A stretch of 64,000 bases of DNA from Haplodiscus bocki (lineage: Eukaryota). Below, piece by piece: positions 1 to 40,033 of this stretch (positions are counted from its first letter, which is position 1; each line of letters begins with the position of its first letter). The DNA is taken from positions 6,014,001 through 6,078,000 of the forward strand of contig OZ296659.1 of assembly GCA_965655095.1 (NCBI GenBank). Direction: 5' to 3'. The translations under genes were made by a program, and so were the position numbers. The notes under the pieces are model-generated. The model saw only the letters and a list, made by a program, of their open reading frames with translations, did not search any database and was not told the DNA's origin.

Positions 1-849
1 TTTCCGGATTTTTGTTCTTTTTTTGACAGTATTACTCGGATCTTAGATGGTTCTCAAAAAAATTTTCAGAGTAAAAAATTTTTTGGTTGGGACAATTAAT
101 TATTTGGTATTTATTGATTTGACTGTGTTTTAAGCACGAATTCGTACATTCATAAAATTTCTTCGAGAGAGAAAGAAATTTGAGAATAATAAATATAGGG
201 GGGACAAAGCACTTGTAATTACAAGGGTAGCACTTTGAGTAAATGATGTGAAGACAAAACAAATTATTTGAGAATTATTATAGTGACTAAAATTTCAACA
301 AAAAAGTTTCAATAATATAGAGAGGGGTTACAGAATAAATAATTTTTGAAAATAGAAAACGTGAAAAGAGTGCAAATTAGTTGTGAGAACCATCTTTCTG
401 GTGTCAGATTTCACAGGATTGCGTCTCGAATTTTGCTTGCATCGGAGCAAAAATGTGGGTGACGCATAGTGAATCAGTGTGATCAAGAACGGTTGAGCCA
501 GAATTCTGTTCGAGTGGAGATATTGATAACTTCATTTATGAATTTCTCAGCATTAATGTTTCTTAATTTTCTTTTAATGGATCTTTTAATTTAGGAGAAA
601 AGTGTTTGATTAAATGAACGTGGAAGCGATGGAAGTTGGTTTTGTTGAAAAATGTGTTTTCACAATGATGCGGGATTTCCTTCAGAGCTTGAAGAGCTTT
701 GTTGAGGAGGAACCGAAGTGCAGCGATTTGGAATTTTCTGCCGGAACTGGGAGATTGGGCAGTTTGATTGTGACTTGCAGGTGATGAAATGTACATCACT
801 ATGAGGCAGACAAGAAAGGTATATGTCTCAACATGAAATGTCAGTTAGA

Positions 850-2183
850 AAAAATTTTTTGATGAAAATCAGGATTTTTTTGAAAATTTTAGCAGTTAGG
901 ATCGCAAAGAAGCAAAAATGATTATATTTTTCTTCGAAGAATTTTCCAAGTAGGAGGGACTTTTTCTCAGAGCTAAAAAATCATAGATATCACAGAAACT
1001 TTTTTATGTTACATATTTAGGAATTTTTTATTGATGAAAAATTTCCAGTGTCATCTTTTGGAAGAGAGGTTCATTGTAAGAAAATTTTCGAAAAGGTGGC
1101 ATTAAATTGCAATTAAATAGAAGAATATTGCAAGGTTTTCAGACTCAATTGCAAATTTGCAAATGCGAATTATGCAGCTTGGTATCCATAAAGAACTTTG
1201 TTCAGAAATTCAATGTCAGATAATTCAGAAATCTTAGCTCAGCATGGCTCAATTAATTTACCACTTTGTTTGATGAGATCAAACGTTTTTTTTTCAATTT
1301 CAGTTGATTGAGCATTACCATGTTCATTTTCAGAATCATTTTCATAAACTTTTGCAGAAGAGGTAACTTGAGCATAGGAGACAGATTGAAAATTTCTATT
1401 CGAAATTTGTCAGTATTGCTTTTTTGAAATAAAAGGAGGTGATTGAGCAGGCAAAAAGAGGATTTAACTATTTGAATAGAGTTGTCAAGCATGTGTGTGA
1501 GACAAGAATTTATAGAACTTTATCATTCAGTGGGTGGCCAAAGACTTTTGACAAAGGTGGATACGGCTGAAAGACTGTGGTTGGATTGCAGTCAAGATCA
1601 ATATGTGCAGAATCAGTGGAAACAAGACATTCCTGTGGAATGATCAGGGGTCCGTCAGGAAAATTTTTGGAGTAAGAAAAAAGTATTGTTTCAAAGGATC
1701 TTAATTTTGGAGGGAACCAACGGTATATGCAGTTTCCAAAATATAGAACAAATGAAGCGAAAATGGAGAGATGAAATTTCTATTTCAAAAAATGAAGTTT
1801 TTTGTGAAGTTGACAGGAAGATTATCACAACAAAATTTGTAGGTTTTATGATGGACACATTTTTCATCCACAGATTGGAACTTCGTATTCGAATCATCAG
1901 TATGCCAATCAAATACAGAAACTCGTAGAAAATTTCTTTGCAGAGTGAAGACTTTTTGAAGATTTGCAGTCCAGAACTCATAGGGAGCTAATTGCTTAGA
2001 CGCAGACAAGATGTAATGATCATTATAGGGAATTGGATTTAATTGACCTTTATACAGTGTTGAAACCATATAGGGCGATATTAATTGAGGCTTGAATTGA
2101 AATTTTTCAGATGATAACTGAGGTGTTAAGGAATCATTTCTTTGTAAATCAGGTTTGGATGATGGCCTTAGTGTAGGAGGCAT
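850..2183 (-). pseudogene. Unassigned accessory ORF downstream of env (copy 1; further copies at ~5400-6739 and ~9960-11295)
   Basis: ATG at 2183 (MPPTLRPSSKPDLQRN...), followed by further same-strand ORF fragments. Seen in all three units. No known motif. Confidence 0.45.
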
Positions 2184-3479
2184 TACATTTGAAGGATCAG
2201 TTAAAACACTGTATTTCCTCTTGAAAATTTTCGCTGAGTTTTTAAATCATGCATAACAATTAAAGGAGCACTACTACAGGCTTCTTGAACTTCCAATTGA
2301 TCATTCAGATATGCTCCAGAACCATGTAAAGAGTTCTTAACTTCATTACACGGAGTAATAGTTTTTTTGAAAAATCAGAGAGTGATCTTTGTGGCGAAAC
2401 AGGCTCTTTATATTCATTAGGCACAGTGATTATCAGAGCTTGATGTTCAAATTCACCGAAAAGAAGAGAAACTTGGAAAGCTTATTCAGTAGCACTCATA
2501 ATGAAAAAATAGTAAATTTTTAGGTACCAGTAGAGATGGAGGTATCTGTTTTGGTGTTTTCAATTTTCCAATGACAGCAAACTGCACAGATGAAATATTG
2601 CAGTGAGAATGAAATTGGCCATAAGGAAAAGGCTTCAGAGCTCAACTTATTAACAAAATGTCCAAATGATTAGCAGAGTTTACTATCGGTGTTTCTTCTA
2701 GCAAGGAATTTCAGAAGAGAAATAAAATTGGAAGTTTGTTTTTCAGAGTCAAAAGAAGAACTTGAAGCAGTCAAAGAGAAGAACTTGATTTAAAGATGAA
2801 TAGAGAAAAAATGAAACATATTGGAATCTCAGAAAAATGAGGTAAGCAGAATATTTCAATTATTTATTTTCAGTTGGGATCTTTATCATATTTAATGACA
2901 GGTTGCACTATTGTTGATTAAAGGTGGCTTTAAGATAGTTTTCAGTGTTGTCGATTTGATCACGTTTTTTGATATTTGTTATGAAAGAAGATGAGACAAA
3001 GCGAGGGTGGTTATGGGTGGAAAGTAGTTTTATTAAATGTTTATGGGGTGGGGTCAGAGAGTTAGCTCGTAAATACTGATGTTATATGGTTTTTGTCCAG
3101 AGAAGGGTTTGCAATGGACACTCTTTGTGTTATGCAAATAAGTTGAAGGAAAAGCAATACTATTCTCAAGGTCAGTTATTTTGAAATGACTTTTGTCAAA
3201 GCAAAATGACCTTGACGGTTCATTAATTTTAGAAATTCGAGGCATGACTTCTTGATTTTTAGTTGCAGAATATTTTTGAATTTTCCATCTACTAGTTTTT
3301 GCAGATTTTTCACGGGAATCAAGAAGACGTTGAATTATTTTTCGGTGACGTTTGTCAAGTTCAGCGTCATGTAAAGCAGTGAACTTTTTTGATGTGGTGT
3401 AATTGGAAAATCCATGAGAGAGAAAACTCAGTATGGTTATTTTTTCATGAAGTCATTACTGATTTGATATTAGTTTAAA

Positions 3480-5302
3480 AAGTTTCAGAAGAAAAGTAAA
3501 AACTTTTTGTACAAACGGAAAAGTGGAAAATTATATCCCACATTGACTGAGAATTTAAAATAGAAAGCCAAACAAGGCAATGAAAGCATCAACAAACCAG
3601 TCAGGAGCAAACCGAGGAGCAATGTTTAAATGGTGATCATGTATATAGACCCTTTAAACGTTTTATGGATAAGACCGGTTTCTATTAGGAGGTGAAGAGA
3701 AATAAGTTGGATGTTGTTGAGAGGTGGCTAAAAACTCATACGAGATGGCTTTTTCCAAATGCTTCAGTGTCTTACCAGAGTGTTTCTTGAACAAAACACG
3801 ATTCCAGAAAATTGTCAATTCAGCTTTGGAATAAATTCCAGCTTTTGTGAAGTGAAAGTGTTTGTGCCAATAGCATATTGAACTTGTTTTGAAACAAAGA
3901 GCGTTGGGTAAGTTCGTAATACTGGTTTATATGTCGGTACAGTGTGCTTAACAGTATCAAGATCTAATGCTATGACATTCTGTGGATTTTTATCACAGGA
4001 TATAGGAGTAGCATATTTAAAATGTTTGTCTTGTTATTGGATCAATGTACGTTACAGAATCTTGATAGGTTTTTAGTATGCAATCAAAACCTTTATCAGT
4101 TTCATACAGAGGTGAGAGAATTTGAGATATGTCTTATAACTTAGCCTTAGAGACTTCTACGTAGAGAAAGTCACTACGGTTTCCAGTTGAAAGATAGCCA
4201 GCAATTTGAGGATTTTCAACAGACATTGCCAAAAGAGTTAGCAGTTGTGTTCGTTCTAGTTCACATATATGATGTAATGAATTGAGTTCTTGAAAACTCA
4301 CTGATATAAATACTTGATTGATAGAATATTCTATCTCTGTACTAACAAGGGAATCATATCCTACAAAACCGATGCTATTTAAATCATTCTGTGGAGGTAT
4401 GTACTTGTTTTTATTTCACAGAGTCAAAGACTAATGGTGAAGACGTTGGCTGTTGACTAATTGATGAGTCTTCATCAACAATGATTGGTTTTTTTCCAGT
4501 ATTCATATTAAAACCTACACGATCGTTGATAAACAAATCAGGACACTAAGTTGGATGCTGTTTTTGGTTTTGTGCAGAAAGTATGTTTTGTGGGAAAAGT
4601 TCCAGTCCCGATAATTCGGAGTAGTTTTTTCCAGTGGTGAATTGGTATAAAGAAATACAGTTGGAAGTATGCCTTTAAGAATTTGTTCAGTGTTTTATCC
4701 AGTTATGTTGAAGAAATCATCAGTTCCTAACCATTAACGATTATTAAAATTAGACATTTGTCCAAAAAAGTCAGAGATAAGAAATAATAAGCAAATTTCT
4801 TCAGGAAACCAGACAATAGTATAGAGATATTTCAAAGTTAGTTTACGAAAACCATCAGAATGCTTACAGGGAAGGGTATGACCTTCAAATATTAGTTTAT
4901 CTACTTTATCAGTACAATCCAGCGAATTTTTTTCATTAAATGATGACAAACTATCTTTGTCAATAAGATTTTCTTGATCATAATTACATCTTGACTTCAA
5001 GTTTGCAGTACCAGTAATCCAGTCATACTTATTCGATTGGTAGGTGAATACACCAATATGTACAGTGTTCAACTAGGTTAGAGTGAATGGCCTTTGTTTT
5101 TTTTCAATTTGAACTTGAAAACTCAGTCCCTCAAAATAACTGAAAGAGCCATTGTAAGAATATTGGTTCAATTCAACGCTAACCGTAGCACTAAGGTTTC
5201 GGATCGGTTTTTTATTTTCATTTGGGTTCAGTTCTGTTGGTAATGGCTTGGAGTTGGTATGACAATCCAAACGGTCATGTCTATACCACTTATGATGTGA
5301 AA
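3480..5302 (-). pseudogene. env: 5'-truncated env glycoprotein copy (unit 1)
   Basis: Homologous to 12560-14420 (HHKWYRHDRLD, LPCKHSDGF, TM segment WFVDAFIALFGF at ~3560-3600). Lacks the signal-peptide end. Confidence 0.8.
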
Positions 5303-8035
5303 TTAGGAGATTTTGCAGTTTGATTGTGACTTGCAGTGATGAAGTATTCATCACTATGAGGCAGACATGAAAGGAATATGTCTCAACATAAAATCTCAGT
5401 TAGAAAAAATTTTTTGATGAAAGTCATTATTTTCTTGAAAATCTTTAGCAGTTAGGATCACAAAGAAGCAGAAATGAATACAATTTCTTTTCAAAGAATT
5501 TTTCAAGGAGGAGTGACTTTTTTCAGAGCTAAAAAATCATAGATAATACGGAATTTTTTTATGTTACATATATAGGAATTTTTCAATGTTAAAAATTTTC
5601 CAGTGTCATCTTTTGGAAAGGAGGTTCATCGTAAGATTTTTTTCAGTAATTTGACATGAGATTGCAAATAATTAGAAGAATATTGCAAGGTTTTCAGACT
5701 CAATTGCAAGTTTGCAAATGCAAATTATGCAGCTTGGTATCCATAAAGAACTTTGTTCAGAATTTCAATGTCAGATAATTCAGAAATCTTAGCTCAGCAT
5801 GGGTCAATTAATTCATCACTTTGTTTGATGAGATCAAACGTTTTTTTTTCAATTTCAGTTGATTGAGCATTACCATGTTCATTTTCAGAATCATTTTCAT
5901 AAACTTTTGCAGAAGAGGTAACTTGAGCATAGGAAACAGATTGAAAATTCCTATTCGAATTTTGCTAGTATTGCTTTCTCGAAATAAAAGGAGGTGATTG
6001 AGCAGGCAAAAAGGGGATTTAACCATATGTATAGAGTTGTGAAGCATGAGTGTAAGACAAGAATTTATAGACCTTTAACATTCAGTGGGTCGTCAAAGTT
6101 TTTTGAAAAATGTGGACACGGCTGAGAGACTGTGGTTGGAATGCAGTCAGGATCAATATGTGCAGAATCAGTGGAAACAAGACATTCCTGTGGATTGACC
6201 AGTGGTCCATCAAGAAACTTTTTGGGGGCAAGAAAAAAGTATTGTTTAAAAGGATCTTAATTTCGGAGCGAGCCAATGGTATATGCAGTTTTCAAAATAT
6301 AGAACAATTGAGGCAAAAATGGAGTGATGAAACTTCTGGTTCAAAAAATGAAGCTGTTTGTGAAAATGGCAGGAAGATTATCACAACCATGTTTGTAGGT
6401 TTTATGATGGACACGTTTTCCATCCACAGATTAGAACTTCGTATTCGAATCATCAGTATGCAAATCAAATACAGAGAATCGGAGAAAATTTCTTTGCAGA
6501 GTGAAGACTTTTTGAAGATTTGCAGTCCAGAACTCTTAGGGAGCTAATTGCTTAAACGCAGACAAGATGTCTTGATCATTATAGAGATTTGGATTTAATT
6601 GACCTTTATACAGTGTTGAAACCATATAGGGCGATATTAATTGAGGCTTGAATTGAAATTTTTCAGATGATAACTGAGGTGTTAAGGAATCATTTCTTTG
6701 TAAATCAGGTTTGGATGATGGCCTCAGTGTAGGAGGCATTACATTTGAAGGATCAGTTAAAACACTGTATTTCCTCTTGAAAATTTTCGCTGAGTTTTTA
6801 AATCATGCATAACAATTAAAGGAGCACTACTACAGGCTTCTTGAACTTCCAATTGATCATTCAGATATGCGCCAGAACCATGTAAAGAGTTCTTAACTTC
6901 ATTACACGGAGTAATAGTTTTTTTGAAAAATCAGAGAGTGATCTTTGTGGCGAAACAGGCTCTTTATATTCATTAGGCACAGTGATTATCAGAGCTTGAT
7001 GTTCAAATTCACCGAAAAGAAGAGAAACTTGGAAAGCTTATTCAGTAGCACTCATAATGAAAAAATAGTAAATTTTTAGGTACCAGTAGAGATGGAGGTA
7101 TCTGTTTTGGTGTTTTCAATTTTCCAATGACAGCAAACTGCACAGATGAAATATTGCAGTGAGAATGAAATTGGCCATAAGGAAAAGGCTTCAGAGCTCA
7201 ACTTATTAACAAAATGTCCAAATGATTAGCAGAGTTTACTATCGGTGTTTCTTCTAGCAAGGAATTTCAGAAGAGAAATAAAATTGGAAGTTTGTTTTTC
7301 AGAGTCAAAAGAAGAACTTGAAGCAGTCAAAGAGAAGAACTTGATTTAAAGATGAATAGAGAAAAAATGAAACATATTGGAATCTCAGAAAAATGAGGTA
7401 AGCAGAATATTTCAATTATTTATTTTCAGTTGGGATCTTTATCATATTTAATGACAGGTTGCACTATTGTTGATTAAAGGTGGCTTTAAGATAGTTTTCA
7501 GTGTTGTCGATTTGATCACGTTTTTTGATATTTGTTATGAAAGAAGATGAGACAAAGCGAGGGTGGTTATGGGTGGAAAGTAGTTTTATTAAATGTTTAT
7601 GGGGTGGGGTCAGAGAGTTAGCTCGTAAATACTGATGTTATATGGTTTTTGTCCAGAGAAGGGTTTGCAATGGACACTCTTTGTGTTATGCAAATAAGTT
7701 GAAGGAAAAGCAATACTATTCTCAAGGTCAGTTATTTTGAAATGACTTTTGTCAAAGCAAAATGACCTTGACGGTTCATTAATTTTAGAAATTCGAGGCA
7801 TGACTTCTTGATTTTTAGTTGCAGAATATTTTTGAATTTTCCATCTACTAGTTTTTGCAGATTTTTCACGGGAATCAAGAAGACGTTGAATTATTTTTCG
7901 GTGACGTTTGTCAAGTTCAGCGTCATGTAAAGCAGTGAACTTTTTTGATGTGGTGTAATTGGAAAATCCATGAGAGAGAAAACTCAGTATGGTTATTTTT
8001 TCATGAAGTCATTACTGATTTGATATTAGTTTAAA

Positions 8036-9858
8036 AAGTTTCAGAAGAAAAGTAAAAACTTTTTGTACAAACGGAAAATTGGAAAATTATATCCCACATT
8101 GACTGAGAATTTAAAATAGAAAGCCAAACAAGGCAATGAAAGCATCAACAAACCAGTCAGGAGCAAACCGAGGAGCAATGTTTAAATGGTGATCATGTAT
8201 ATAGACCCTTTAAACGTTTTATGGATAAGACCGGTTTCTATTAGGAGGTGAAGAGAAATAAGTTGGATGTTGTTGAGAGGTGGCTAAAAACTCATACGAG
8301 ATGGCTTTTTCCAAATGCTTCAGTGTCTTACCAGAGTGTTTCTTGAACAAAACACGATTCCAGAAAATTGTCAATTCAGCTTTGGAATAAATTCCAGCTT
8401 TTGTGAAGTGAAAGTGTTTGTGCCAATAGCATATTGAACTTGTTTTGAAACAAAGAGCGTTGGGTAAGTTCGTAATACTGGTTTATATGTCGGTACAGTG
8501 TGCTTAACAGTATCAAGATCTAATGCTATGACATTCTGTGGATTTTTATCACAGGATATAGGAGTAGCATATTTAAAATGTTTGTCTTGTTATTGGATCA
8601 ATGTACGTTACAGAATCTTGATAGGTTTTTAGTATGCAATCAAAACCTTTATCAGTTTCATACAGAGGTGAGAGAATTTGAGATATGTCTTATAACTTAG
8701 CCTTAGAGACTTCTACGTAGAGAAAGTCACTACGGTTTCCAGTTGAAAGATAGCCAGCAATTTGAGGATTTTCAACAGACATTGCCAAAAGAGTTAGCAG
8801 TTGTGTTCGTTCTAGTTCACATATATGATGTAATGAATTGAGTTCTTGAAAACTCACTGATATAAATACTTGATTGATAGAATATTCTATCTCTGTACTA
8901 ACAAGGGAATCATATCCTACAAAACCGATGCTATTTAAATCATTCTGTGGAGGTATGTACTTGTTTTTATTTCACAGAGTCAAAGACTAATGGTGAAGAC
9001 GTTGGCTGTTGACTAATTGATGAGTCTTCATCAACAATGATTGGTTTTTTTCCAGTATTCATATTAAAACCTACACGATCGTTGATAAACAAATCAGGAC
9101 ACTAAGTTGGATGCTGTTTTTGGTTTTGTGCAGAAAGTATGTTTTGTGGGAAAAGTTCCAGTCCCGATAATTCGGAGTAGTTTTTTCCAGTGGTGAATTG
9201 GTATAAAGAAATACAGTTGGAAGTATGCCTTTAAGAATTTGTTCAGTGTTTTATCCAGTTATGTTGAAGAAATCATCAGTTCCTAACCATTAACGATTAT
9301 TAAAATTAGACATTTGTCCAAAAAAGTCAGAGATAAGAAATAATAAGCAAATTTCTTCAGGAAACCAGACAATAGTATAGAGATATTTCAAAGTTAGTTT
9401 ACGAAAACCATCAGAATGCTTACAGGGAAGGGTATGACCTTCAAATATTAGTTTATCTACTTTATCAGTACAATCCAGCGAATTTTTTTCATTAAATGAT
9501 GACAAACTATCTTTGTCAATAAGATTTTCTTGATCATAATTACATCTTGACTTCAAGTTTGCAGTACCAGTAATCCAGTCATACTTATTCGATTGGTAGG
9601 TGAATACACCAATATGTACAGTGTTCAACTAGGTTAGAGTGAATGGCCTTTGTTTTTTTTCAATTTGAACTTGAAAACTCAGTCCCTCAAAATAACTGAA
9701 AGAGCCATTGTAAGAATATTGGTTCAATTCAACGCTAACCGTAGCACTAAGGTTTCGGATCGGTTTTTTATTTTCATTTGGGTTCAGTTCTGTTGGTAAT
9801 GGCTTGGAGTTGGTATGACAATCCAAACGGTCATGTCTATACCACTTATGATGTGAAA
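8036..9858 (-). pseudogene. env: 5'-truncated env glycoprotein copy (unit 2)
   Basis: Near-identical to 3480-5302 at offset +4556. Confidence 0.8.
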
Positions 9859-12559
9859 TTAGGAGATTTTGCAGTTTGATTGTGACTTGCAGTGATGAAG
9901 TATTCATCACTATGAGGCAGACATGAAAGGAATATGTCTCAACATAAAATCTCAGTTAGAAAAAATTTTTTGATGAAAGTCATTATTTTCTTGAAAATCT
10001 TTAGCAGTTAGGATCACAAAGAAGCAGAAATGAATACAATTTCTTTTCAAAGAATTTTTCAAGGAGGAGTGACTTTTTTCAGAGCTAAAAAATCATAGAT
10101 AATACGGAATTTTTTTATGTTACATATATAGGAATTTTTCAATGTTAAAAATTTTCCAGTGTCATCTTTTGGAAAGGAGGTTCATCGTAAGATTTTTTTC
10201 AGTAATTTGACATGAGATTGCAAATAATTAGAAGAATATTGCAAGGTTTTCAGACTCAATTGCAAGTTTGCAAATGCAAATTATGCAGCTTGGTATCCAT
10301 AAAGAACTTTGTTCAGAATTTCAATGTCAGATAATTCAGAAATCTTAGCTCAGCATGGGTCAATTAATTCATCACTTTGTTTGATGAGATCAAACGTTTT
10401 TTTTTCAATTTCAGTTGATTGAGCATTACCATGTTCATTTTCAGAATCATTTTCATAAACTTTTGCAGAAGAGGTAACTTGAGCATAGGAAACAGATTGA
10501 AAATTCCTATTCGAATTTTGCTAGTATTGCTTTCTCGAAATAAAAGGAGGTGATTGAGCAGGCAAAAAGGGGATTTAACCATATGTATAGAGTTGTGAAG
10601 CATGAGTGTAAGACAAGAATTTATAGACCTTTAACATTCAGTGGGTCGTCAAAGTTTTTTGAAAAATGTGGACACGGCTGAGAGACTGTGGTTGGAATGC
10701 AGTCAGGATCAATATGTGCAGAATCAGTGGAAACAAGACATTCCTGTGGATTGACCAGTGGTCCATCAAGAAACTTTTTGGGGGCAAGAAAAAAGTATTG
10801 TTTAAAAGGATCTTAATTTCGGAGCGAGCCAATGGTATATGCAGTTTTCAAAATATAGAACAATTGAGGCAAAAATGGAGTGATGAAACTTCTGGTTCAA
10901 AAAATGAAGCTGTTTGTGAAAATGGCAGGAAGATTATCACAACCATGTTTGTAGGTTTTATGATGGACACGTTTTCCATCCACAGATTAGAACTTCGTAT
11001 TCGAATCATCAGTATGCAAATCAAATACAGAGAATCGGAGAAAATTTCTTTGCAGAGTGAAGACTTTTTGAAGATTTGCAGTCCAGAACTCTTAGGGAGC
11101 TAATTGCTTAAACGCAGACAAGATGTCTTGATCATTATAGAGATTTGGATTTAATTGACCTTTATACAGTGTTGAAACCATATAGGGCGATATTAATTGA
11201 GGCTTGAATTGAAATTTTTCAGATGATAACTGAGGTGTTAAGGAATCATTTCTTTGTAAATCAGGTTTGGATGATGGCCTCGGTGTAGGAGGCATTACAT
11301 TTGAAGTTAAAAAAGCAGGATCAGTTAAAATAATGTATTTCCTCTTGAATTTTTTCGCGGAGTTTTTGAATCAAGCATAACAATTAAAGGAGCACTACTA
11401 CAGGCTTCTTGAACTTCCATTTGATCATTCAGATATGCGCTGGAACCAAATAAAGAGTTTTTTACTTCATTAAACGGAGTAGTATTTTGGAAAAATCAGA
11501 GAGCGAGCTTGGTGGCGAAACAGGCTCTTTATATTCATCAGGCAGAGTGATGATCAGAGCTTGATGTTCAAATTCACTGAAAAGAAGAGAAACTTGGAAA
11601 GTTTATTCAGTAGCACTCATATTGAGAAAATAGTAAAATTTTAGGTACGAGTAGAAATGGAGGTATCTGTTTTAGTGTTTTCAATTTGCCGATGAGAGCA
11701 AACTGCACAGATGAAATATTGCAGTGAGAATGAAATTGGCCATAAGGAAAAAATTTCAGAGCTCAAATTTTTTACTCCAAATGATTAGCAGAGTTTAATA
11801 TCGGTGTTTCTTCTTACAAGGAATTTCAGAAGAGAAAATAAATTGGAAGTTTGTTTTTCAGAGTCAAAAAGAAGAACTTGATGCAGTCAAAGAGAAGAAC
11901 TTGATTCGAAGATGAACAGAAAAAAAATGAAACATATTGGAACCTCAGAAATATGAGGTAAGCAGAATAGTTCGATTATTTATTTTCAGTTGGGATCTTT
12001 ATCATATTTAATGACAGGTTGCAGTATTGTTGATTAAAGCCAGCTTTAAGATAGTTTTCAGTGTTGTCGATTTGATCACATTTTATGATATTTGGTATGA
12101 AAGATGATGAGACAAAGCGAGGGTGGTTATGGGTGGAAAGTATTTTTCAAATGTTTATGGGGTGGGGTCAGAGAGTTGGCTCGTAAATACAAATGTTATA
12201 TGGTTATTGTCCAGAGAAGAGTTTGCAATGGACACTTTTTATTTTATGCAAATAGGTTGAAGGTAGAGTAATACTATTGTCAAGTTCAGTTATTTTGAAA
12301 TGACTTTTGTCAAAGCAAAATGAATTTCACGGTTCATTAATTTTAGGAACTTGAGGCATGACTTCATGATTTTTAGTTGCAGAATTCTTTTGAACTTTCC
12401 ATCGACTATTTTTTGCAGATTTTTTATGGGGGTCATGAAGACGTTGAATTATTTTTCGGTGACGTTTGTCAAGTTCAGCGTCATGTAAAGCAGTGACTTT
12501 TTTTGATGTGATGTAATTGAAAAATCCATGAGAGAGAGAGACCTCAGTATGGTTATTTT

Positions 12560-14815
12560 TTTCATGAATTAAATAACTCATTTGATATTAGTTTAAAAAG
12601 TTTCAGAAGAAAAGTAAAAAATTTTTTGTACACACAGAAAAGTGGAAAATTATATCCCACTTTGATTGAGAATTTAAAATAGAAACCAAACATTGCAATG
12701 AAAGCATCAGCAAACAGCCAGGAGCAAACACAGGAGCAATGTTTAAAAGGAAATCATGTATAATGACCCTTTGAACGTTTTATGGGTAAGAACGTTTTCT
12801 ATTAGGAGGTGAATAGAAATAAGTTGGATGTTGTTAAGAGGTAGCTAAAAAGTCATACGAGATGGCTTTTCCCGAATGCTTCAGTGTCTTATCAGAGTGT
12901 TTCTTGAACAAAACACGATTCCAGAAATTTGTCAATTCAGCTTTGGAATAAATTCCAGCTTTTGTGAAGTGAAAGTGTTTGTGCCTATAGCATATTGAAC
13001 TTGTTTTGAATCAAAGAGCGTTGGGTAAGTTCGTTAGACTGGTTTATATGTCGGTACAGAGTGCTTAACAGTATCAAGATCTAATGCTATGACATTCTGT
13101 GGATTTTTATCACAGGATATAGGAGTAGCATATTTAAAATATTTGTCTTGTTATTGGATCAATGTACGTTACAGAATCTTGATAGGTTTTTAGTATGCAA
13201 TCAAAACCTTTATCAGTTTCATACAGAGTTGAGACAATTTGAGATATGTCATATAACTTAGCCTTAGAGCCTTCTACGTAGAGAAACTCACTACGGTTTC
13301 CAGTTGAAAGATAGCCAGCAATTTTAGGATTTTCAACAGACATTGCTAAAAGAGTTAGCAGTTGTGTTCGTTCTAGTTCACATATATGATGTAATGTATT
13401 GAGTTCTCGAAAACTCATTGATATAATTACTTGATTGATAGAATATTCTATCTCTGTACTAATACAGGAATCATATCCTACAAAACCGATGCTTTTTGAA
13501 TCATTCAGTGCAGATAAGTAATATTTTTATTTCACAGAGTCAAAGACTAATGGTGAAGACGTTGGCTGTTGACTAATTGACGAGTCTTCATCAACAATGA
13601 TTGGTTTTTTTCCAGTATTCATAGTAAAACCTTCACGATAAGTGATAAACAAATCAAGACACTAAGTTGGATGCTTTTTTTAGTTTTGTGCAGAAAGTAT
13701 GTTCTGTGGGAAAATTTCCAGTCCCGATAAAGTTGGAGTAGTAGTTTCCATTGGTGAATTGGTATAAGAAAATACATTTGGAAGTATGCCTTCAAGAATT
13801 TGTTCAGTTTTTTTTTCCAGTTATGTTGAGGAAATCATCAATTTCTTACCAATAACGATTATTAAGGTTAAACATTCGTCCAAAAAAGTCAAAGATGAGA
13901 TAATAGACAAAATTCTTCAGGAAACCAGACAATAGTATATAGATATTTCAGCGTTGGTTTACGAAAACCATCAGAATGCATACAGGGAAGGGTATGACCT
14001 TCAAATATTAGTTTATCTACTTTATCAGTACAGTCCAGAGAGTTTTCTTCATTAATTGATGACAAGCTATCTTTGTCAAAAAGATTTTGTTGATCATATT
14101 TACATCTGGACTTCGCGTTTGCAGTACCAGTAATCCAGTCCTATTTTTTGATTGGCAAGTAAAGACACCAGTATGTACAGTGTTCAACTTAGTTAGAGTA
14201 AATGGACTATGTTTTTTTTTCATTTTGAACTTGAAAACTCAGTCCCTCAAAATAACTGAAAGAGCCATTGAAAGAGTATTGCTCCAGTTCAACGCTGTCC
14301 GTAGCACTTAGTTTTCGGATCGGTTTTTTATTTTCATTTGGGTTGAGTTCTGTTGGTAATGGCTTGGAGTTGGTATGCCAATCTATACGGTCATGTCTAT
14401 GCCATTTATACTGTGAAAATTGAGCACCAGAGGTTCCATTATTTTTAACATTTGCAGAGCAGCGAAAGGTTTTATATCTTTTCGCTGTAGCACGAATAAG
14501 TACAGAAGCAAGAGTTCTAGTATATTTAGTTTCGGGGGGAGCTTGAGTACATTTCCGTACCCGTGTTGAGCTAAAATGTCTCAGATCGTTTTGTTTACAA
14601 CAATCATAATGAGTTGCTAGGATTTGAGTAAATCGAAGATCACCAAGTTGAATTATTTTTTCAGAAGTGAATGCATCAGCAGTATGCAGTGATGAGAAAT
14701 AAAATATTACACAGAGCAAAATCATAGATTTTGCAGGGAAAAAAATCATAAGTTTCAGAAAGTGGTTTTGTTTTTCAGACCAGAGATAGTGTTGAAAAAA
14801 GTTAAAGTTCGCCAT
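12560..14815 (-). pseudogene. env: Envelope glycoprotein, chuvirus/gB-like class III fusogen (full-length position, disrupted)
   Basis: Signal-peptide-like MILLCVIFYFSSLHTADA, then HYDC-x13-V-x2-C near the N-terminus. Central ICELERTQLLTLLAMSVENPKIAGYL...VEGS...YIDPITRQI block. Hydrophobic TM region at ~12650-12720. Lies downstream of pol. Confidence 0.75.
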
Positions 14816-14819
14816 TGAT

Positions 14820-15873
14820 GATCAAATGGAGGTTCATCAGAAGAAGTGAATTGTAAACTAGTTACAACAAAAAGACTAGGAAACGTTTGGTGTTTTAAGT
14901 GAGTTGAGGTTGGAATCGGATGAAGATTTAAACCAATGAATTTTACAGTTACTTCAAGCTTTAGTTCAATTGAAGTGTGAGTTAGTCTAGTCATTTCTTG
15001 ATTACGAGTAAAAGCAGAAAATTGCACACTGATGTTTAATCTGTTTACAGGAACGATGCGATATCTCAGATATTGTCTGGAACGAATATTCATTTGGTTA
15101 TCAACTCCAAGTGGATAATGGTAGAGATCAAGTGTACGAGGGCTTGAGTTTTCTTCCACCGTATGATATAGAAGATCAGTAGAAAGAATGGCACCCAGAA
15201 AAGAGAGAAGAGAGAGTTTTTGGTGTTCATTTGGATGAATAGATCTTGAATATATGTGACCAGTGAATGAAGTTTCGATACCAGAACAAGGTCTCAGTAA
15301 AATTGGGACGTCACAAAGAGAGCGAGGAAGGTCTTCAGAAGTAGATTAATTAGGTTGTGCGTGTTGACGCAACAATGCAGGGATCGAAATTGATGTTGAT
15401 CTTCTAGTTTAGGAATGCGATGTTTGTTTAGGTCTTGATCTCAAAGTATACGAGTGAGTTACAGGTTGAGAACAAAAGGTTGACATAATGTTTGATGAAT
15501 TTTTAGATTCACAATTCAGAATATCATCAGCAGAAGAATTAGAGTATAAACTCGATGATAGCGCTGGATATAACCATGAAAATGTTTCAAAATTAATATC
15601 AGAAGCTGTTTTCAGATCAGGTAGATCTGCAAAAATAGATGTTTCATCAATTTTTTTTTGCAGAGCAGAGGCGGTTTGTTTATTACAGAATGTAGCGTGA
15701 ATTGAACTTTGATGTTTGAAAGATTTTATTTTTCGAGCTACACTTTTAGTAACAGGTGGAGATGGTAGTGGAAAAGGAGGATCTATATCAGATGGATCCA
15801 GTATATAAAATGTTCTAGAGGTCCTAGTTGGAGTCATAACTGCAGAACCGGCATCAGTGATAAGGGAGGTCAT
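14820..15873 (-). pseudogene. Unassigned ORF(s) between pol and env
   Basis: ORF 15409-15873 (Pro/Ser/Thr-rich, ends YTLRSRPK) and ORF 14755-15159, both on the element's sense strand. Confidence 0.45.
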
Positions 15874-16370
15874 TGAGCAGCTACAGTAAGAGTTTCTTAA
15901 TTTTCAGTGCAGGAAACAACTTTTTTCAGAATCACTTGAAATTTCTACAGCAGATCCAGTATCATAAAACTTTGAAAGTTTTATTCCGAAACTGGTGGAG
16001 CAGAGGGTAAATTATTGTTACCAGATGAATCCGGAGATGAATAAAGGACTACGTCAGTATCAGAAAAGAAATTATTAGTAACAGGGTTTATTGCTTCTAT
16101 ACAATATAGAGTTTTTTCGAGAGTATTTGAATCAGAGTTTTCAATTGTGAAATACTTCAAAATGATTTCAGGGTTAAATTTTAACGAACTACAGTGGTAA
16201 ATATTTAAATGTTATCAGTTTCAACTTTAGAAGGATTTTTTTCAGAGTGTTAAAATTCTCTCCAAAAAATTACCAGAGTCTTAACGGCAAAATTCAAGGG
16301 ATATAAGTTATGATGAACAAGAAAAAAAATACCCTGGATGTTTCCATAGGCTTGCGATGATCAACTTTAT

Positions 16371-18223
16371 TCAACTCCATTCAAAGTCGATCAGCAATTT
16401 CATTCGATTCAACTCTTGTGGAAATAATAAATTAACCGGAAGGAAAGGTGATGAGACGAAAAGACAACAAACTGCTCTCGGTGGTGGTCGTAGATCATAG
16501 TTAATTCGAGTCTTTCTGTTGAAAGTTTGTGATTGGTTTAAATGCAAAGAGGAGTTTGATTGCTCTGCGAATGAAGTTGGACAGTATTGAACAGTATCAG
16601 TTTCGGGAAGATGGAAGATTTCAAGAAATTTGTTGAGTGATTGAAATTTAGACGATAGTGGTTTATAATGTAATTTATCAGAATCAGATTTTGATCGTGA
16701 AATATGATAACGAATATCTTTCAATTTTGCAGATTTGTTTAACTCATTACCAAACATAACTTATTGATCACCAGCACTGTTTTAGAATGGGTCATCATCC
16801 AAAACACTATAATCAGTTTCAGATTTATCTTAAGAAGTATAGAGATTATTTTGAATTATGTCTGATGTATCAGAATCGTTAATTAATTCAGGATTTTGTT
16901 CATTGTTTGATTGAATGTGAGGAAAGAGCAAAGACTATTTAGGATAATATGGAATCAAATGGTTTCATTATGTGTGAAAAATTTTTCCGTCCTCTGTCAG
17001 AAAATCATACGTGACATCCGTAGGCTTGTTACTAATTTTGAAAGAACCATTACGAATTGGTTTCAGTTTATCCAAAAAATGAACTACTTCAAAACTTCGA
17101 TTTAAAACAAATGAATTCAGTGGTATTGTTTTATCCAGATTGGGTGAATTTTGCATTGTATATGCAAGGGAATTTTTTTTCAGTGCGTATTGATATACCT
17201 TTGATTAAAATTGAACCAAGGCTGTTTCAATTGCGAGAAGCCAAGTAGACATTGGTTTCACAAATGCTATGAAAAAAACGGATTTGAATCAATTGATTGA
17301 AAATGAGAATGAGGAAGCAAATTAGAACAATATAGGACAGTACATTGACGAAATGAAATTCGAGAAAAATTTAATTGAAATTTCAGTGGAAAACGCGGTT
17401 GAGTAATAAAAATTAGCTCCTATGCTGAAATATGCAGATGTGATAATGGTTCAGTTTCATGAGCATAAGCAAAGAAATCTACTAGAGCTGACCAGTTTTG
17501 AGGAGTATCATGTATTAACATTATCAGATGGGCTCCAAGTTCTTTTTGTACTCCGACAAGTCCGTTTGTCCAAGGAATATGTGAAGTTCTTGGAGAATCA
17601 CGACTTTAAACAGAGTAGAGTAATTTGCCATTTCAGAATCAAGATCATCAGTTCCTCTATCAGTGATCAGACATTGAGGAAGACTGAATTTTGAAATCCA
17701 ATAATGAAGAATTCAGGAAGTTACAACGTAATGGGCATTTCTTTTTGGAGTTGATACAGTTACAATGTAATTGCTGAAATGATCAACAATTACATAAATG
17801 TAAATAATTCCTGTAGAAATGGGGTTATTGGACCTTTAGTATGCATAAAAATACTATGAATAAAAACGGTTCACAGTTTTGGGAATGGTAATATTGCAGC
17901 TTCGTTTTGTTTCATATTTTTGTACCTGTGCGATTGGCAATCAATACAATCATAAATGAAAATTGATAGCTATTTTTGCAGAAAAGGAATATAATAGTAT
18001 CGACCGGAATTATATTGTGCAATATGCAGACCAGCATTAGAGTTTTCATGAACTTTATCGACTGCAGAAAAATACAACTCCAGTGGTAACCCCAAGCGAG
18101 ACATTTGAGAAGAAAGATCATCATCAGTGTACTGTGAAAGGTTATCATTTTTTTCACGCAATGGTTTTTAGTAGTTATCGGTTGAGTAGATTCATCAAAA
18201 TGCAAATTTAGAAAAAAAAACAT
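16371..18223 (-). pseudogene. pol: Retroviral-type integrase domain of pol with GPY/F-like module and C-terminal tail
   Basis: HHCC remnant (VHENSNAGLH...HDCIDC). Core MHTKGP...YVIVDHFSNY at ~17770-17845. KLKPIRNGSFKI (GPY/F-like). YDLRPPPR tail. Confidence 0.85.
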
Positions 18224-18959
18224 TTTTTACAACAAAACTAGCAGTTGAAACAGGTGTCTTTACAACAGGACCGGATTTTTCGGGGATCCAATTATGTACA
18301 AACTTCAGAAGAGGGTCTCTTTTTTTAATAATTGAGTATTGTTTCACTCTCCAATGGAGTGTCGGTAGGCAAAATGAAATAATTAGATTTAGATGTGTTT
18401 TCGGAAAATGATGGAGCAAAAATTTAAATATTCAATGATTTTTTGATTACAGATTGATATGTTTCATGAAAAGTTTCCAGTTGCAAAATTTCTTTTTCAG
18501 AGTCATTATACTCCTCAGAAGTAGATGGCTTATATTTCAGCGTTAAATCAGGAGCAAAGGGATCATCAAATGTGGTATCTTCTTTTCACTAGGATCATCA
18601 ATATCAGTGATATCGGTGTCATTTGTCATTTAAAAAAGCTCATTGTTGTAATAAAGATTTAGTTTTTTTCTTGACTGGTTTTTTAGATTGACTTTGAAAT
18701 GGTTTGACAGCTTCAGAGGAAAGTGAATCTATTGGTTTGGTTCTGATGTTTTCTCTTTTGTCAATAATAATAATGGAGAATTGAGCAATTCTAGAATCAG
18801 CTAAAATACGATGACAATCGTCCGGTTGGGAAGGAAACACAGTTTCAAGTTTGACCAAAAAGTGTACAGGATTGATTTGCTTGTCATGTGTCAGTGTTGC
18901 AAAATGAATTTTCTCGGGTAATTGTTTGTGCGTCAGTTGCTTCAGTTGCGTTTCTTTGT

Positions 18960-19335
18960 GGGTAAAAGTATGGCCTAACATATCAAGTAGAGAAAGATTT
19001 TTTTTCGTATGAATACCACGAAATTCTGAAATATGGTTGAATGCATTTGTGAAGTGTAGAATATTGAAGAAAAGTTTCCTTTTTTATTAAAACATCTAAA
19101 GGTTGAATTTTGATCATTCAAAACATTAATGAGGCGATCAGAGCCAATATTATTATGTTCGTATATCGTTAGTGAATATACGATTCCGATTAAATCGTGA
19201 TATATAGTACAGAATTTTTTTTCATTAGTAGGTTATATAATCCAGTTTTCCTTTATCAATCATTTGGAATAGGACACAACCTATAACAATCAAGGAAGAA
19301 TCTACAGCAATGAAGAATGGATGGTTTTGTATTGG
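18960..19335 (-). pseudogene. pol: RNase H domain of pol
   Basis: HPFFIAVDSSLIVIGCVLFQ at ~19265-19325. Ends with LDMLGH, which corresponds to the ADxLSR motif. Confidence 0.82.
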
Positions 19336-19405
19336 ATAATGTCAACGTAACATCTTTTGTATTAGAAGTTTTAATTTGTTGAAACAGTGTTTTTAGTTCA
19401 AAGTT

Positions 19406-20173
19406 TCAGTTAAATTTCTTACTATCATGTAGTAAATCATACAGAGGATTCATATTAACATGAAGTTTACCAATAAATTTAAAATAGAAGTTCATTGAGC
19501 CAATGAACCTCACCAGTCCGATTTCTATAGTAGGAGGAACTCTTTGAATTGCCGCAATTTTGGATTGCTTTAGTTTAATTGTATGCAAACCAATTTCATG
19601 ACCAAGATACTGTAAAGTAAGAAGCATGAAGCAAGATTTTTCTGGAGCTAATTTCGGATGTTCTCTATTAGCAATATCATGAAAGTGTTTGATAAGTTGC
19701 TGTATTTGTGGTTCAGATTTTGACTTGAGTAGAAAATCATCAAAATAAACCAGTGCAGAACCTTGACAAATCAAGTCTTTGATAAACAGGGACATTTGTT
19801 GTGTGAAAAATTTCGAAGATCAATAAGGCCATGGAATCCTCTAATGAAAGCAAAAAGTTTATCAGCAGATGAAAATCCTGTTAGTTTGATAGCTTCATCA
19901 TCTAATATAGCATGTGCATATGCATACATCAGATCAATTGCAGGTATATATTTCTTGTTTGCCTTAGCATTCTGTGTTGCTAGTTTCCAGCAGCCAAGAT
20001 TCAGATAATTCATCAGTTATTGAATTGAGATGTCTAGCATCCAACTTAATTTTAATCGAACCATTCTTTTTTAAAATAATCCAGGAACTCAGAAAAGTGG
20101 TTGCATAGTTTGGTTCTTCATGATTCGGTGAGCCAGTTTGTTTCATTAATCCTTTTTTTTGTAAAGCATCCAA
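19406..20173 (-). pseudogene. pol: Reverse transcriptase domain of pol (frameshifted)
   Basis: IKLDARHLNSIT, IDLMYAYAH, FIRGFHGL, ALVYFDDFLL (YxDD), YLGHEI, RFIGSMNFY...PLYDLL. Confidence 0.93.
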
Positions 20174-20979
20174 TAAAGTATTGACTTTGTCGCAGTAATG
20201 TATAGGAACTTTAGTAGGTCTTTGTGTTTGTAGCTTAGCATCAGGTTTTGATCTAATCCGAAAATGAGTAGAATTTTTTCCGACAACATTACGACGTGTT
20301 CCATAACAGTGTTCATTTTCAACAAGAAAACTACAGAATTGAATATATTCAGAATCATTGAGATCAGAGTATTAAAAATGAATTTTCTTGAGAAATTGTA
20401 AAGTTTCTCCAGAATATGGTAAAGGTGAAAGTACTCGTGGAGCTAATATTTGAGACAGTTGTACATTACAGAAAGTACTGTTTAGAATTGGATCTTTATA
20501 CAAATCAAAACGATTAACTTCGAAAGAACTGTTCTTTTGTTTCTTGTCTTGATAATGAACGATAATTTGTTCAGTTACTCCAGGATGGTAGGTTTGAACT
20601 ACCGAATGAATCAGTGTAGTTAAATCCTGAAATCTACAATGGAAGGGTTTCACAGTGGTAATAGGAGTTGAAATTTATCATATTGTTCCAGTTGGAAGTG
20701 TAGCTATGTGCATAGTATTATTTTTAATTGAAAGTAAGCGCAAGTTTTCAGAACTTTTCGATAAGACTCCCATAAAAGATAAGTATCGTTTCAGTTTTTA
20801 CAGGAGATGAGTTTAAGGCATTTCATCAAAAAATCAAAAAATGGGTCATGATTTTCAGATTCTAACCATAAAATTTTTGAAATTTTCAATAGAAAGTGTG
20901 ATGTTTGTACAATGTTGAATTTATTACATGTTAGCTTTTTGAAATTATTTGCTAAATAGATGAAAAAAAGGAAATTCTT

Positions 20980-21360
20980 TTGAATCAGTGTGGTAAGAGA
21001 ATCAGTTATGGGTTGATCAATGGAAGAATGTTTGAAGTTCATGGTAAGATCTTGGATTTTGATCTTTTGTATGTATTTCTCAAGGAAAGACATTCGCACG
21101 ATATGTATTTCATATCAGCTAAAGTGGAAGGGATCATGAAATATCTTGATTTTGTTTCTTTTGTTGAGAAAGAAGTCGCAGAGATATTGTGTTTACTTGG
21201 AACTTCAGATTGGTTTGCAATGGTCAACATTTTCGATGTATCATGTTGATCATGTTGACATACATTGAACTTTTCAAAGATCATCATGTAGGTTGGTATG
21301 TTAAGTAGGGAAACAGACGCACCGCTATCTAGTAGAGAAGCGATTTCTAGACTTAAAGGT
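20980..21360 (-). pseudogene. pro: Aspartic protease domain
   Basis: My translation of the minus strand at ~21300-21350 gives LEIASLLDSGASVSLLN (D-S-G active site). Confidence 0.85.
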
Positions 21361-21419
21361 AAATTTGAATCGTTTTTGTGTTGTGAATGAATGTACAGAC
21401 TACAAAATCAGCTTTTTGG

Positions 21420-24400
21420 AGTTATAGCAATAATGATTTCAGTGGTATGCATGTTAACTTTAAAATTGTCTTCTGACTTCGAAAGGCTTTCAGTGTAGTG
21501 GTTATGATTTTCAGAGGAACTTGGTTGTGTATTATTGAAAAATTATTCTAGTTGCAGACGCAGATCGAGAACTTGGTCTTGATGGAGGTCGATAAGAAGA
21601 ATTAGAGTTTCTGAGATACTGTAGGTTTCTAGAGTTGGATCCACAAAACGAACGGTAGCGAGTATTTCTGAAAGAAGAATTGTAATGAGATCTATAGTTT
21701 CTTCGTTGGGTTTAAAATTCAGTCTATCTCGAACGTGATGGAGTTAGACTGCAATTGAATTTTCTATGACTATAACAATATCGGGAACGAGAAATTTCAG
21801 GTGATCGCCCTGAAATTGGAGGTCATCTAGAACGAGGGGTTCCATTTGGAGAAAATCGACTTCTCGAATTTGAGCGATTTCTTGAATCATATCTTTTACT
21901 TGGAAAATAGTTTACAGGGTAGGATGAAGTTTGATCATTTGGATGAATTTGATTCCGTTACGCTATGAAGTACTGATTGAAGAGTTTCGAAGGCGATTTC
22001 GATCGAGAACGAGAAATCCGTTTTTTTTCATCATCGCGTTGTTTGCGAAAACAATTTGAAACAAAGTGATTGGATTTTTGACAAAATTTAAAGTCTTTGC
22101 AAATTTGAGGTTAACTCTCTTTATCAAATATTTTTGCAAACATGACTTCAGGATTTGAATCATAAGTTTCAGCGGATCGATTTTTGAGATTCCAGTTTTG
22201 ATGTTGTATTAATGGTTTCCAGTGGTAAATTAAAAGTACGGTTTTCTTCATTCGTAATATCTTCACCATCAAGAAGTTTAACCAGTGTATGAAATGGAAA
22301 GGGAGGTTCCATAACAGTAGACTTATGTTTGACTTGCCGTTTATGAGCAAAAACTTCAGTTTTTTAGTAGTCATATAGAGAAAATTTCAATAAACTTGAG
22401 GTTAATAGTTGCAGCAGACTCATTACACCAGCCCTTTACAACTCATTGTTGGACTTTGAAAACATAATGACGTACGTCTTTGGTCTCTTTTTTCATTAAA
22501 ACTTGAGCTCCACATTGTGCGTAAAATGCAGTTTTCTGTGAAGGAAAGTTTTTTCTTATTCCAGATGCAAGGGGAGACCTGTCGCTTTTGTAACTTTCAT
22601 GGGGACGCAAAAACCAGCTTAAAACGAATCCAGATAACAAACATTGTAAATATGCCATTTTTCGTTTCTGCCATCGAATATATGATCAATAGGCTGTTCT
22701 CCCTTTGTAGAAAAATTATGTGCATCAATTCGATGTAAGTATTTTTCAGGAGTATATTGATGGTCAAGTCCATCAAAAGTTTTCACCGATTTGTTCAATG
22801 CAGCAAAGGTACAATATAATTTTGTGTAATTACAGGAGAAGTGAGAAGCGTTTATTGGATCCACAGTGGAAAATGATGAAGGTGAAAACATACAGGAGCC
22901 TATATTAGATGCAGTGTGTGGTTGATAAAATGTTTGACACGGATTTACAGTGGCGTTTAAATTAGTATTTGTTTGAAAAAATTATTGCTGGTACTACTTA
23001 ATGAGTAAGTATCAACAATATTCAGTAGAAACAACGACGTTCTTGACATGCTAGGAACAGTTGTAGTTATTTTATTCAGCATACGTGTGTGATCATTTGA
23101 TCTATTTGGTTGATTTGCTACAGTTTGGTCATTTTGAATTTGGTTAATATAATCAGTAAATGGATTATACATTTGTAAATTCCTTTGGGTTCTATCAAAA
23201 TGAAGAAATGGTGAAGTTTCAGTGTTTTGAAAATGAATTGGAAGAGAAGTTACACCACAGGACACAGGATTCATCTTGAGATCTAAACTTTTCAGATGAA
23301 TTTGGATGATTATGAATGACAGAACTGCTTCGAATGGTTCTTTTGAACTTGCAGTGGCTTTGTAAAACCTGGTGTGAAAATAGAATTGGGTACAATTGAT
23401 ATTCCAGTAACTTCGTGGGAGATTTATTTTCAGTGGCTTCAGTTGTGTTTATATTTGGATTTAAATTAACAGACTTCGATTGCGTTTGAGGTTGGAAACC
23501 AGCACTTTTATTGTAGTTTCATTTTTGAGCTATTTTTTTTAGTTATCGTTGGTTGAATTGAACGTATCTCATCCATAATGTAATCAATGGGTCTCTTTGC
23601 ACGGATTGCTCATGTGATCATATTAGGTAAAAATTCCAGTTGAGAAATAATTTCGGTATTGGCTTGGAGTAGATTATATTATTTCGAATGAAAAATTTCA
23701 GTTTTAACCTAGAATGGAAGTAATTCTTGTTCACTAGATGTCTGAAGAATTTTTTATAGTAGCCCTGATCAGTAGTATTTCAGAAAAATTGATTTTTAGG
23801 CCGGGAAAACGTTATCAGAAACAGAGAATAAAGTTTAATTTGTGTTATTGTTATGGTTTCTAAAACAATTAATTGGGAAAAAAATGTATATTGAAAAGCA
23901 TTTATTTGAGCAAAATCTCTCAAAAACCACTGGTGTGGATTATTAAGTCTTTTAACTTTATCCACTTCAAATGTTTTAGAAAAATGTTGCTTGTTAAAGC
24001 GTTCATAATTTGCCGAGGAAACAAGCGTAGGTTGTTGTAAATATTCATTAGCTTCTCGCAGTTTATTCAAAAAATATAAGAATACATCCTCAAATTGTAA
24101 AAAACTATGTTTAGGATTTATTGTCCTCGAAAAGATTCCAGTGTTATTGTTTTTAAAAACTATAGGGAAAGGTACGTTAGCAAAATTTGATTCACAAGTC
24201 TTATAATGAATTTAATATAACTAAGAGTCATTGTGTTCTCTAATCAGAGGGACTGAATAATTATTTTTACGGTGTTTTTGAGATGTCAGAGAGATTGTTG
24301 CTTCATTTATGAGGTTTTCAGTGGAAGTTATAGCGTCCGTAATAAATGCTCATTTTTGTCTTTCTGACATGAAAGACGAAGAGTGTAGGAATGGAAAATT

Positions 24401-24750
24401 CAGATCTTGCAACTCTTTGTGGTGGTACATTTTTCGTAATTGAAGGTCACAATTAAGTTTTTTCTGAAGGAATATTATTCTGTTGAATTTCAGCATCAAA
24501 TTGGTTAAATTGTTATATCATTTGATTAAGTTCAAGTTTTGTTTTCGTAGTAATTGATTTGCAGCTTCAATTCTTCCTTGATGTTGTAAACATATTCGTT
24601 CCTTTTCTGTTTGAGTTCTTTCTGATGAAAAAAGTTAAGGTAATTGTTGTTGCAAGTCTACAGATGGATTTGGTATTTTTCCTGTAAACATCTTAGATTC
24701 AGAAGATTCTAGGACTCGCAGAGAAATTTTTGTGTATTAATAGTTTAATT
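21420..24750 (-). pseudogene. gag: gag (long, disrupted) with a degenerate CCHC zinc knuckle
   Basis: KSVKTFDGLDHQYTPEKYL and LSWFLR capsid-like segments. FKFCQKSNHFVSNC at ~22050-22092 is Cx2Cx4Hx4C with the first C replaced by F. An Arg/Ser-rich tail follows. The 5' boundary is uncertain. Confidence 0.75.
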
Positions 24751-39957: not shown

Positions 39958-40033
39958 CACTGAAAACGACACCACTGTGTACACTACAGTGTAAAAAATT
40001 GTGTAAATTACACTGAGAGTGTCGTTTTCAGTG
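39958..40033. mobile_element. 76-bp MITE-like element
   Basis: Perfect 15-bp TIR CACTGAAAACGACAC / GTGTCGTTTTCAGTG, flanked by TA on both sides. Confidence 0.65.

Follow-up and report, generated by a model that had tools for sequence, protein, structure and literature searches.

Our results indicate that the window, by which we mean the whole 64,000-nucleotide stretch of DNA analysed here, very probably carries the dead remains of a large Ty3/Gypsy retroelement of gag-pol-env type, in which a class III (gB- or Monjiviricetes G-like) fusogen was encoded by the third gene. The same reading, with the same high confidence, makes the locus an HSV/gB-type 'errantivirus' in the broad sense of Chary and Hayashi (PMC13524379). 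It is founded on gene order, on membership of the env family and on the class III fold of close homologs, all of which are results of the analysis. The features are given below in the direction of the coding strand, with positions counted from the first letter of the window.

23780..24211, minus strand: 143-aa stop-free stretch upstream of gag (longest run, p=0.005)
21700..23500, minus strand: gag-like region; at 22083, remnant of a zinc knuckle spaced C-X4-H-X4-C (coding-like, p=0.005 for 21400-23500)
21040..21407, minus strand: aspartic protease remnant, LLDSGAS at 21335 (motif read by eye)
19330..20300, minus strand: reverse transcriptase remnant, YxDD at 19747 (RVT_1, E 1.3e-7; profile of 9 homologs, 333 bits)
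18100..19330, minus strand: RNase H (~19330-19000) and a bridge of ~300 codons to integrase (RT_RNaseH_2, E 1.7e-6; RT_RNaseH, E 0.0058; tblastn with homologs)
16900..18100, minus strand: integrase remnant with a zinc-finger CxxC near 17945 and its core at 17800-17500 (rve, E 0.00073, below cut-off; motifs by eye)
14755..16900, minus strand: coding-like sequence separating integrase from env (p=0.005, 200 resamples)
12250..14815, minus strand: decayed env-like gene of the class III fusogen family PF24664 (profile of homologs; Pfam and fold of homologs)
14670..14749, minus strand: signal-peptide-like hydrophobic N-terminus (hydropathy and ATG positions; full-length homologs alike)
13143..13382, minus strand: conserved CELERTQ…IDPITR block (motif positions, homolog model)
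12580..12715 (about), minus strand: transmembrane segment (TM), broken over two frames (sequence; TM helix in homolog model)
9862..12250, minus strand: sequence downstream of env, not coding-like (p=0.15)
750..14418, no strand assigned: three tandem 4556-bp units (self-comparison)
7690..9858, minus strand: 5'-truncated env duplicate of unit 2 (profile, self-comparison)
3135..5302, minus strand: 5'-truncated env duplicate of unit 1 (profile, self-comparison)

An env gene had been proposed at 12560..14815 in a sequence-only reading of this DNA. The gene itself is borne out by a profile of 40 natural homologs (747 positions), of which the window env covers positions 5-710 in five frame segments; the best segment scored 248 bits (E 8e-77), against a maximum of 1.9 bits across 30 Markov resamples. 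Its lower end has to be moved, as homology continues to 12252. The signal peptide, the YDC motif (14608), the block running from CELERTQ (13382) to YIDPITR (13166), the C-terminal TM and the pol upstream, all described in that reading, are present on the minus strand. ATG codons lie at 14815, 14749 and 14725, and the env probably starts at one of the latter two; the hydrophobic peak is at 14728, with a value of 2.61 (Kyte-Doolittle, 11-residue window), and in full-length homologs a hydrophobic N-terminal segment is likewise followed by YDC or FDC. In a homolog model, the CELERTQ…IDPITR block corresponds to the end of a 46-residue central helix (H424-469) and the beta strands that follow it. 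After the TM, a cytoplasmic tail extends to ~12250. Frame changes occur near 13890-13800, 13140, 12970 and 12720-12580, and nine stop codons were counted over four homolog-defined frame segments, some of them possibly in short out-of-frame patches. Nine of the 14 conserved cysteines are retained, one ambiguously, and five are missing. The window copy of env is dead.

A 130-aa fragment of the window env, one of 37 fragments scanned, gave a weak match to Pfam PF24664 (Monjiviricetes_fusion) at E 0.0068, below the Pfam cut-off. Of 246 candidates obtained with the same fragment, 50 were homologs (47-66% identity), and PF24664 is annotated in 43 of these. When 27 of 199 env homologs, the longer ones, were scanned, the family was present in 5/5 and 22/22, with a best E of 1e-47. 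The family is large: the homolog P0005 has 1812 relatives at E<=0.001 and 178 at <=1e-30, its cluster counts 1585 members, and a 703-aa protein with a cluster of that size is included. Similar proteins presumably occur in acoel worms. The N-terminal ORF of env gave 0 matches among 267 candidates, which is best regarded as a miss of sensitivity, since pairwise BLAST aligned it with homolog P0018 at 40% over 161 aa (E 3e-34).

The evidence on fold comes from monomer AlphaFold models of two natural homologs rather than from the broken window copy: P0018 (553 aa; 38-44% identity with the env of the window; pLDDT 76.9) and the full-length P0062 (746 aa, 28% identical, pLDDT 74.6). With Foldseek, the P0018 model matched G proteins of xinmovirus, chu-like and qin-related type, with E values between 1e-23 and 1e-21 and identities of 12-15%. 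Against the PDB, herpesvirus gB accounted for all matches listed for both models, with E from 1.3e-9 for P0018 and 3e-14 for P0062 against gB; a PDB sequence search with the env profile gave 0 matches. VIA-align of the P0018 model against 48,161 chains returned class III fusogens (gB or rhabdovirus G) as all of its best 10, headed by HSV-1 gB (Z 8.4, rmsd 14.8 A, 379 aligned), where a Z near 8 can reflect a common arrangement. TM-scores of the homolog models are low (0.2-0.45 overall; 0.2-0.3 against gB, with an rmsd of ~15 A), and the models show PH-like domains, a long central helix and a beta crown. For close homologs, Pfam, VIA-align and two Foldseek libraries agree, and this agreement supports the assignment of the window env family to the class III fusogens. 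Baculovirus or paramyxovirus F proteins are absent from the fold matches listed for P0018 and P0062, which alone excludes nothing; an F-type (class I) env appears implausible because of the positive class III matches. The 'chuvirus/gB-like class III' label given earlier thus stands in its class III part for close homologs, by Pfam and fold searches, and the fold comparison asked of it came out as expected, the two models matching gB and P0018 also xinmo- and chuvirus G. 'Chuvirus' is too specific, because the best structural matches are spread over xinmo-, chu- and qin-related G proteins at that low identity. Three entomopoxvirus proteins (Q9YVZ3, W6JPK9 and Q9YW15) also match an env homolog model at E 2e-12 to 3e-8 (BFVD), so that insect poxviruses, too, have class III-like glycoproteins.

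The pol remnant has the order PR-RT-RH-IN, on the same strand as env, with RT, RH and rve identified by Pfam (rve below the cut-off) and the protease by its motif; no Pfam protease family was found in the gag-pol frame readings. A degenerate GPY/F-like motif, read by eye, lies at 17060, after the integrase core. A GPY/F module in this position is a Ty3/Gypsy hallmark in the available text of PMC12440569. Nine RT homologs were found among 101 candidates, eight of them with both RT_RNaseH and RT_RNaseH_2, and the two families were matched in the window and, with E values reaching 3e-24, in 4/4 RT-RH homologs scanned. No second RNase H was matched in the window or in these four homologs. The bridge between RNase H and integrase (18100-19000, minus strand, ~300 codons) is conserved in P0202, P0206 and P0207 and carries no Pfam domain. 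In the PDB, the RT homologs matched Ty3 RT best (E 8e-24), followed by caulimovirus RT (4e-22) and foamy virus (6e-7); a caulimovirus is made unlikely by the presence of an integrase. That the carrier pol is of Ty3/Gypsy type, as the sequence-only reading had it, is supported by the order of its domains, the family of its RNase H and its PDB matches.

Peptidase_A17, DUF5641 and DUF1759 are markers of BEL/Pao (Pao-type) elements. None of them was found in the four RT-RH homologs (0/4) or in the minus-strand frame readings of 16299-26500 (0/6). A BEL/Pao carrier similar to Anakin of mosquitoes, which is the best-known bearer of a chuvirus-like G, is highly improbable: the order PR-RT-RH-IN is common to BEL/Pao in the accessible text of PMC12440569, but the two RNase H families at E down to 3e-24, the lack of those Pao-type families, the best PDB match to Ty3 and the degenerate GPY/F-like module all speak against it.

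That env follows pol was correctly read from the sequence, but the two are not directly adjacent, since ~2.1 kb of same-strand coding-like sequence separates the end of integrase (~16900) from env. The three local copies named in the sequence-only reading are units of one 4556-bp tandem repeat. Only unit 3 (9862-14418) runs on into the 5' end of env and pol; units 1 and 2 have a 5'-truncated env and no pol. As proof of independent env-pol linkage the three copies were therefore rejected, and the linkage rests on one copy. One of the nine RT homologs and one of the 50 env homologs share the same longest contig value, 230175, a weak hint of co-occurrence elsewhere.

A strand bias on the coding strand (C ~0.20, G ~0.13) extends over 25000 to 1 and has disappeared at 26500-29000. 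It suggests one element of at least ~17 kb, with the two duplicated units removed, running off the edge of the window. No LTR pair was detected by blastn and tblastx of 1-12300 against 23001-40000, with nothing better than E 0.05, and no convincing PBS or PPT and no target-site duplication was found at the element; it is old, and its 3' end may lie beyond position 1. Searches for Rfam families and tRNAs gave 0 matches each, and when 26500-40600 was scanned with Pfam in search of a host gene, 0/6 frames gave a match.

These results also bear on the proposal that the env is a non-retroviral endogenous viral element, a cDNA of a chu- or xinmo-like G that landed in or beside a Gypsy element and never worked as its env. 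The best structural matches are Monjiviricetes G proteins, the integrase and env lie ~2.1 kb apart with no LTRs found enclosing both, and in the available text of PMC10084718 such G genes are flanked by fragmentary Gypsy sequences without clear capture. However, identity to viral G is 12-15%, against 47-66% for the 50 matches of a family with a 1585-member cluster; env agrees with pol in strand, base composition and decay, both genes being degraded to a similar degree; and the shared contig value is a weak hint in the same direction. We regard this origin as quite improbable, and a retroelement env as the better reading of the gene.

The history of the copy can be followed in the tandem repeat. 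Two old units are ~91% identical, units 1 and 3 being 367 substitutions apart, and a near-exact 4556-bp repeat of ~2170-6725 (spanning 2170-11281, 2 mismatches) overlies this older duplication. Unit 2 is identical to unit 3 in its first 1420 bp, and its remainder is that of unit 1 except for 2 mismatches. An old duplication was followed by a very recent one, through unequal crossover, or else the near-exact repeat is an artefact of the assembly. Both old env copies have a common frame shift at profile positions 464-525 and miss the same four conserved cysteines, so that env was most likely already broken when it was duplicated. The differences between them fall at the three codon positions as 46, 30 and 39 (p=0.19), and 25 of 89 changes are synonymous (expected fraction, 0.24), so substitutions look neutral overall. 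The N-terminal part, one of four segments, has a synonymous excess (17/41; codon-position p=0.019), which fits selection or chance. That slight excess is the one point in favour of a host-domesticated, syncytin-like fusogen, an extremely improbable reading in view of the many stops and frame changes, the five missing cysteines and the pol remnant still attached; for this copy, the breaks largely rule it out.

A mechanism for the intact ancestor may be drawn from class III fusogens in general and from Drosophila gypsy. Env would enter the ER via its signal peptide, form disulfide-bonded trimers anchored by the C-terminal TM and be taken into the membrane of Gag particles. It would then fuse the particle with a neighbouring cell: the loops of domain I would insert, and the protein would refold about its long central helix. 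The element would probably have moved between cells in this manner, most likely from soma to germline as Drosophila gypsy does, and we infer a 'once infectious' lineage. After insertion, the copy would have decayed, a 4.56-kb piece with the 3' part of env would have been duplicated in tandem, and both duplicate copies would have drifted neutrally to ~9% divergence. An env family of 50 matches at 47-66% identity and a 1585-member cluster are as expected for amplification by a transposon, and the cluster suggests a recent burst of a relative.

The element may also have been as described while its env made no infectious particles, acting in cell-cell fusion or being carried as a passenger during intracellular movement. 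We consider this rather unlikely. The transmission mechanism is not established for most such elements (PMC13524379) and herpes gB needs partner proteins, but the signal peptide, the TM and 14 cysteines are conserved across env homologs of ~25-40% identity, which argues for long selection for a folded surface fusogen.

Several stretches of the element are coding-like and lack a known family. The gag-like region is a putative gag, from its position, the partial zinc knuckle at 22083 and its coding-likeness, and has no Pfam match. A full Ty3/Gypsy knuckle has the form CX2CX4HX4C. The stretch from integrase to env contains stop-free runs of 129, 76, 164 and 196 aa, with 564 aa of the 2.1 kb in runs of >=70; no Pfam or Atlas match was obtained for this stretch, which could be an extended tail of Pol or else an accessory ORF. 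The 196-aa run (14755-15345, minus strand), itself without Pfam or Atlas match, overlaps the start of env in another frame. In the homolog P0130, ~265 aa stand in frame before the env signal-like segment, which indicates that upstream fusion occurs in relatives of the window env. Downstream of env, the paralogous sequence at 1-3130 is coding-like (p=0.005); the post-env sequence has no Pfam match and weak unnamed Atlas matches (best, 0.79), and is a possible fourth ORF or a very long Env tail. The homolog P0082 has ~380 aa after its TM. The coding-likeness test covered ten regions on two strands and is not specific, since the plus strand of the flank at 29000-31500 likewise gave p=0.005. Taken together, the unexplained stretches could be extended tails of Pol and Env or else accessory genes.

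To the right of the element, a fragment of protein-primed DNA polymerase B (DNA_pol_B_2, E 1e-8) was found at 40570-41259 on the minus strand, within 40769-61013, in a 10.1-kb tandem duplication of 93% identity; this duplicated element is probably a decayed Polinton/Maverick-like element. Inside it are internal repeats (49356-49958, 59485-60087 and 60983-61465) with periods of ~293 bp (69-71% identity) and ~180 bp (76%). The longest stop-free runs of the window, 288 and 202 aa at 61857-62723 and 63147-63755 (minus strand), have no Pfam match.

A bolder reading, which we hold tentatively and think doubtful, is that the locus preserves a fossil member of a lineage of complex Gypsy retroviruses that are giant, at 17 kb or more, and that this lineage is uncatalogued and very abundant. 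It would have a class III env plus accessory genes of no known family at three places (ahead of gag, between integrase and env, and downstream of env), and its host would be an early-branching animal group that the published survey lacks. If true, it would close the gap that separates cnidarians from other bilaterians in the argument for a pre-Cambrian env, and provide an invertebrate example of a retroelement with accessory genes. More generally, class III envs on Ty3/Gypsy elements bear on the origin of retroviral-type envelopes and on fusogen exchange among retroelements, negative-strand RNA viruses and herpesviruses. The window copy adds one data point, because its kind is published and the copy is dead; it would gain in value with a host from an unsampled phylum, with the existence of intact members and with coding-like stretches that prove to be genuine accessory genes. 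An intact natural member could also address the triggering of a gB-type env that acts alone, lacking gH/gL.

Anakin, mosquito BEL/Pao elements with a chuvirus-like G (Dezordi et al. 2020, PMC7642597), are, in the accessible part of that paper, likewise LTR-type retroelements with a Jingchuvirales-like class III glycoprotein, whereas the window pol is Gypsy-type by Pfam and PDB matches. The available text of PMC10084718 reports Gypsy fragments beside Jingchuvirales G genes in arthropods, with no clear capture by Gypsy. Among viruses, the Monjiviricetes G proteins (Xinmoviridae, Chuviridae and qin-related) share PF24664 and provide the closest predicted structures (E 1e-23), but differ in their 12-15% identity; no viral N or L gene was found in the window regions scanned. 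Herpesvirus gB (e.g. PDB 2GUM) has the class III architecture of the env homolog models, but with ~10% identity and no sequence-level match, and its gH/gL partners were not seen at the locus. Of Troyka and Odin, defined in PMC12440569 and PMC9040795 as far as their text is available, Troyka does not fit the window element and Odin appears not to. In those parts, Troyka has a CX2CX8-10HX4C knuckle, no env and no GPY/F, and was rejected on the X4 spacing of the window knuckle and the presence of env. Odin, the lokiretroviruses and Retroviridae have a tether and a second RNase H there; the first RNase H of the window scores as a canonical Gypsy RNase H and no second one was matched in homologs reaching the bridge.

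In acoels, about half of one genome consists of LTR elements, and the main text of that report (PMC9911081) is silent on env. No paper on env-carrying Gypsy elements in acoels was among the results listed in literature searches, bioRxiv supplements and subscription papers lying outside their scope, and no acoel names occur in the text or supplements of PMC13524379. A search of those supplements, in which long cells are incomplete, with four short env motifs gave one unrelated match, a partial ectodomain row. The survey of Chary and Hayashi, which counts 1512 elements, describes gB-type env on Ty3/Gypsy across invertebrate phyla, together with 114 gypsy elements with a chuvirus-like glycoprotein for which a mosquito glycoprotein was the bait (PMC13524379). 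The novelty suggested in the sequence-only reading was therefore overstated. The survey took in elements with intact ORFs in several near-identical copies, whereas the window copy is broken; its non-insect filter allowed <=1000 nt between POL and ENV matches and 10 kb overall, with wider manual searches for some phyla. What may be new is the host group, a size of 17 kb or more and the presence of coding-like sequence on both sides of env.

Drosophila errantiviruses such as gypsy and ZAM share the gag-pol-env Ty3/Gypsy plan and serve as the model for soma-to-germline spread; unlike in the window element, their env is F-type, and most of them have a duplicated pseudo-RNase H (PMC13524379). The window copy differs from the HSV/gB-type errantiviruses in being decayed, in having no LTRs detected, in spanning at least ~17 kb once the duplications are set aside, and in its coding-like stretches between integrase and env and after env. 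It shares with them the gag-pol-env order, a Gypsy-type pol with one canonical RNase H, and an env with a signal peptide, a gB-like ectodomain (here in homolog models) and a TM; the kind is already published, and this locus is a further example of it, not a new kind.
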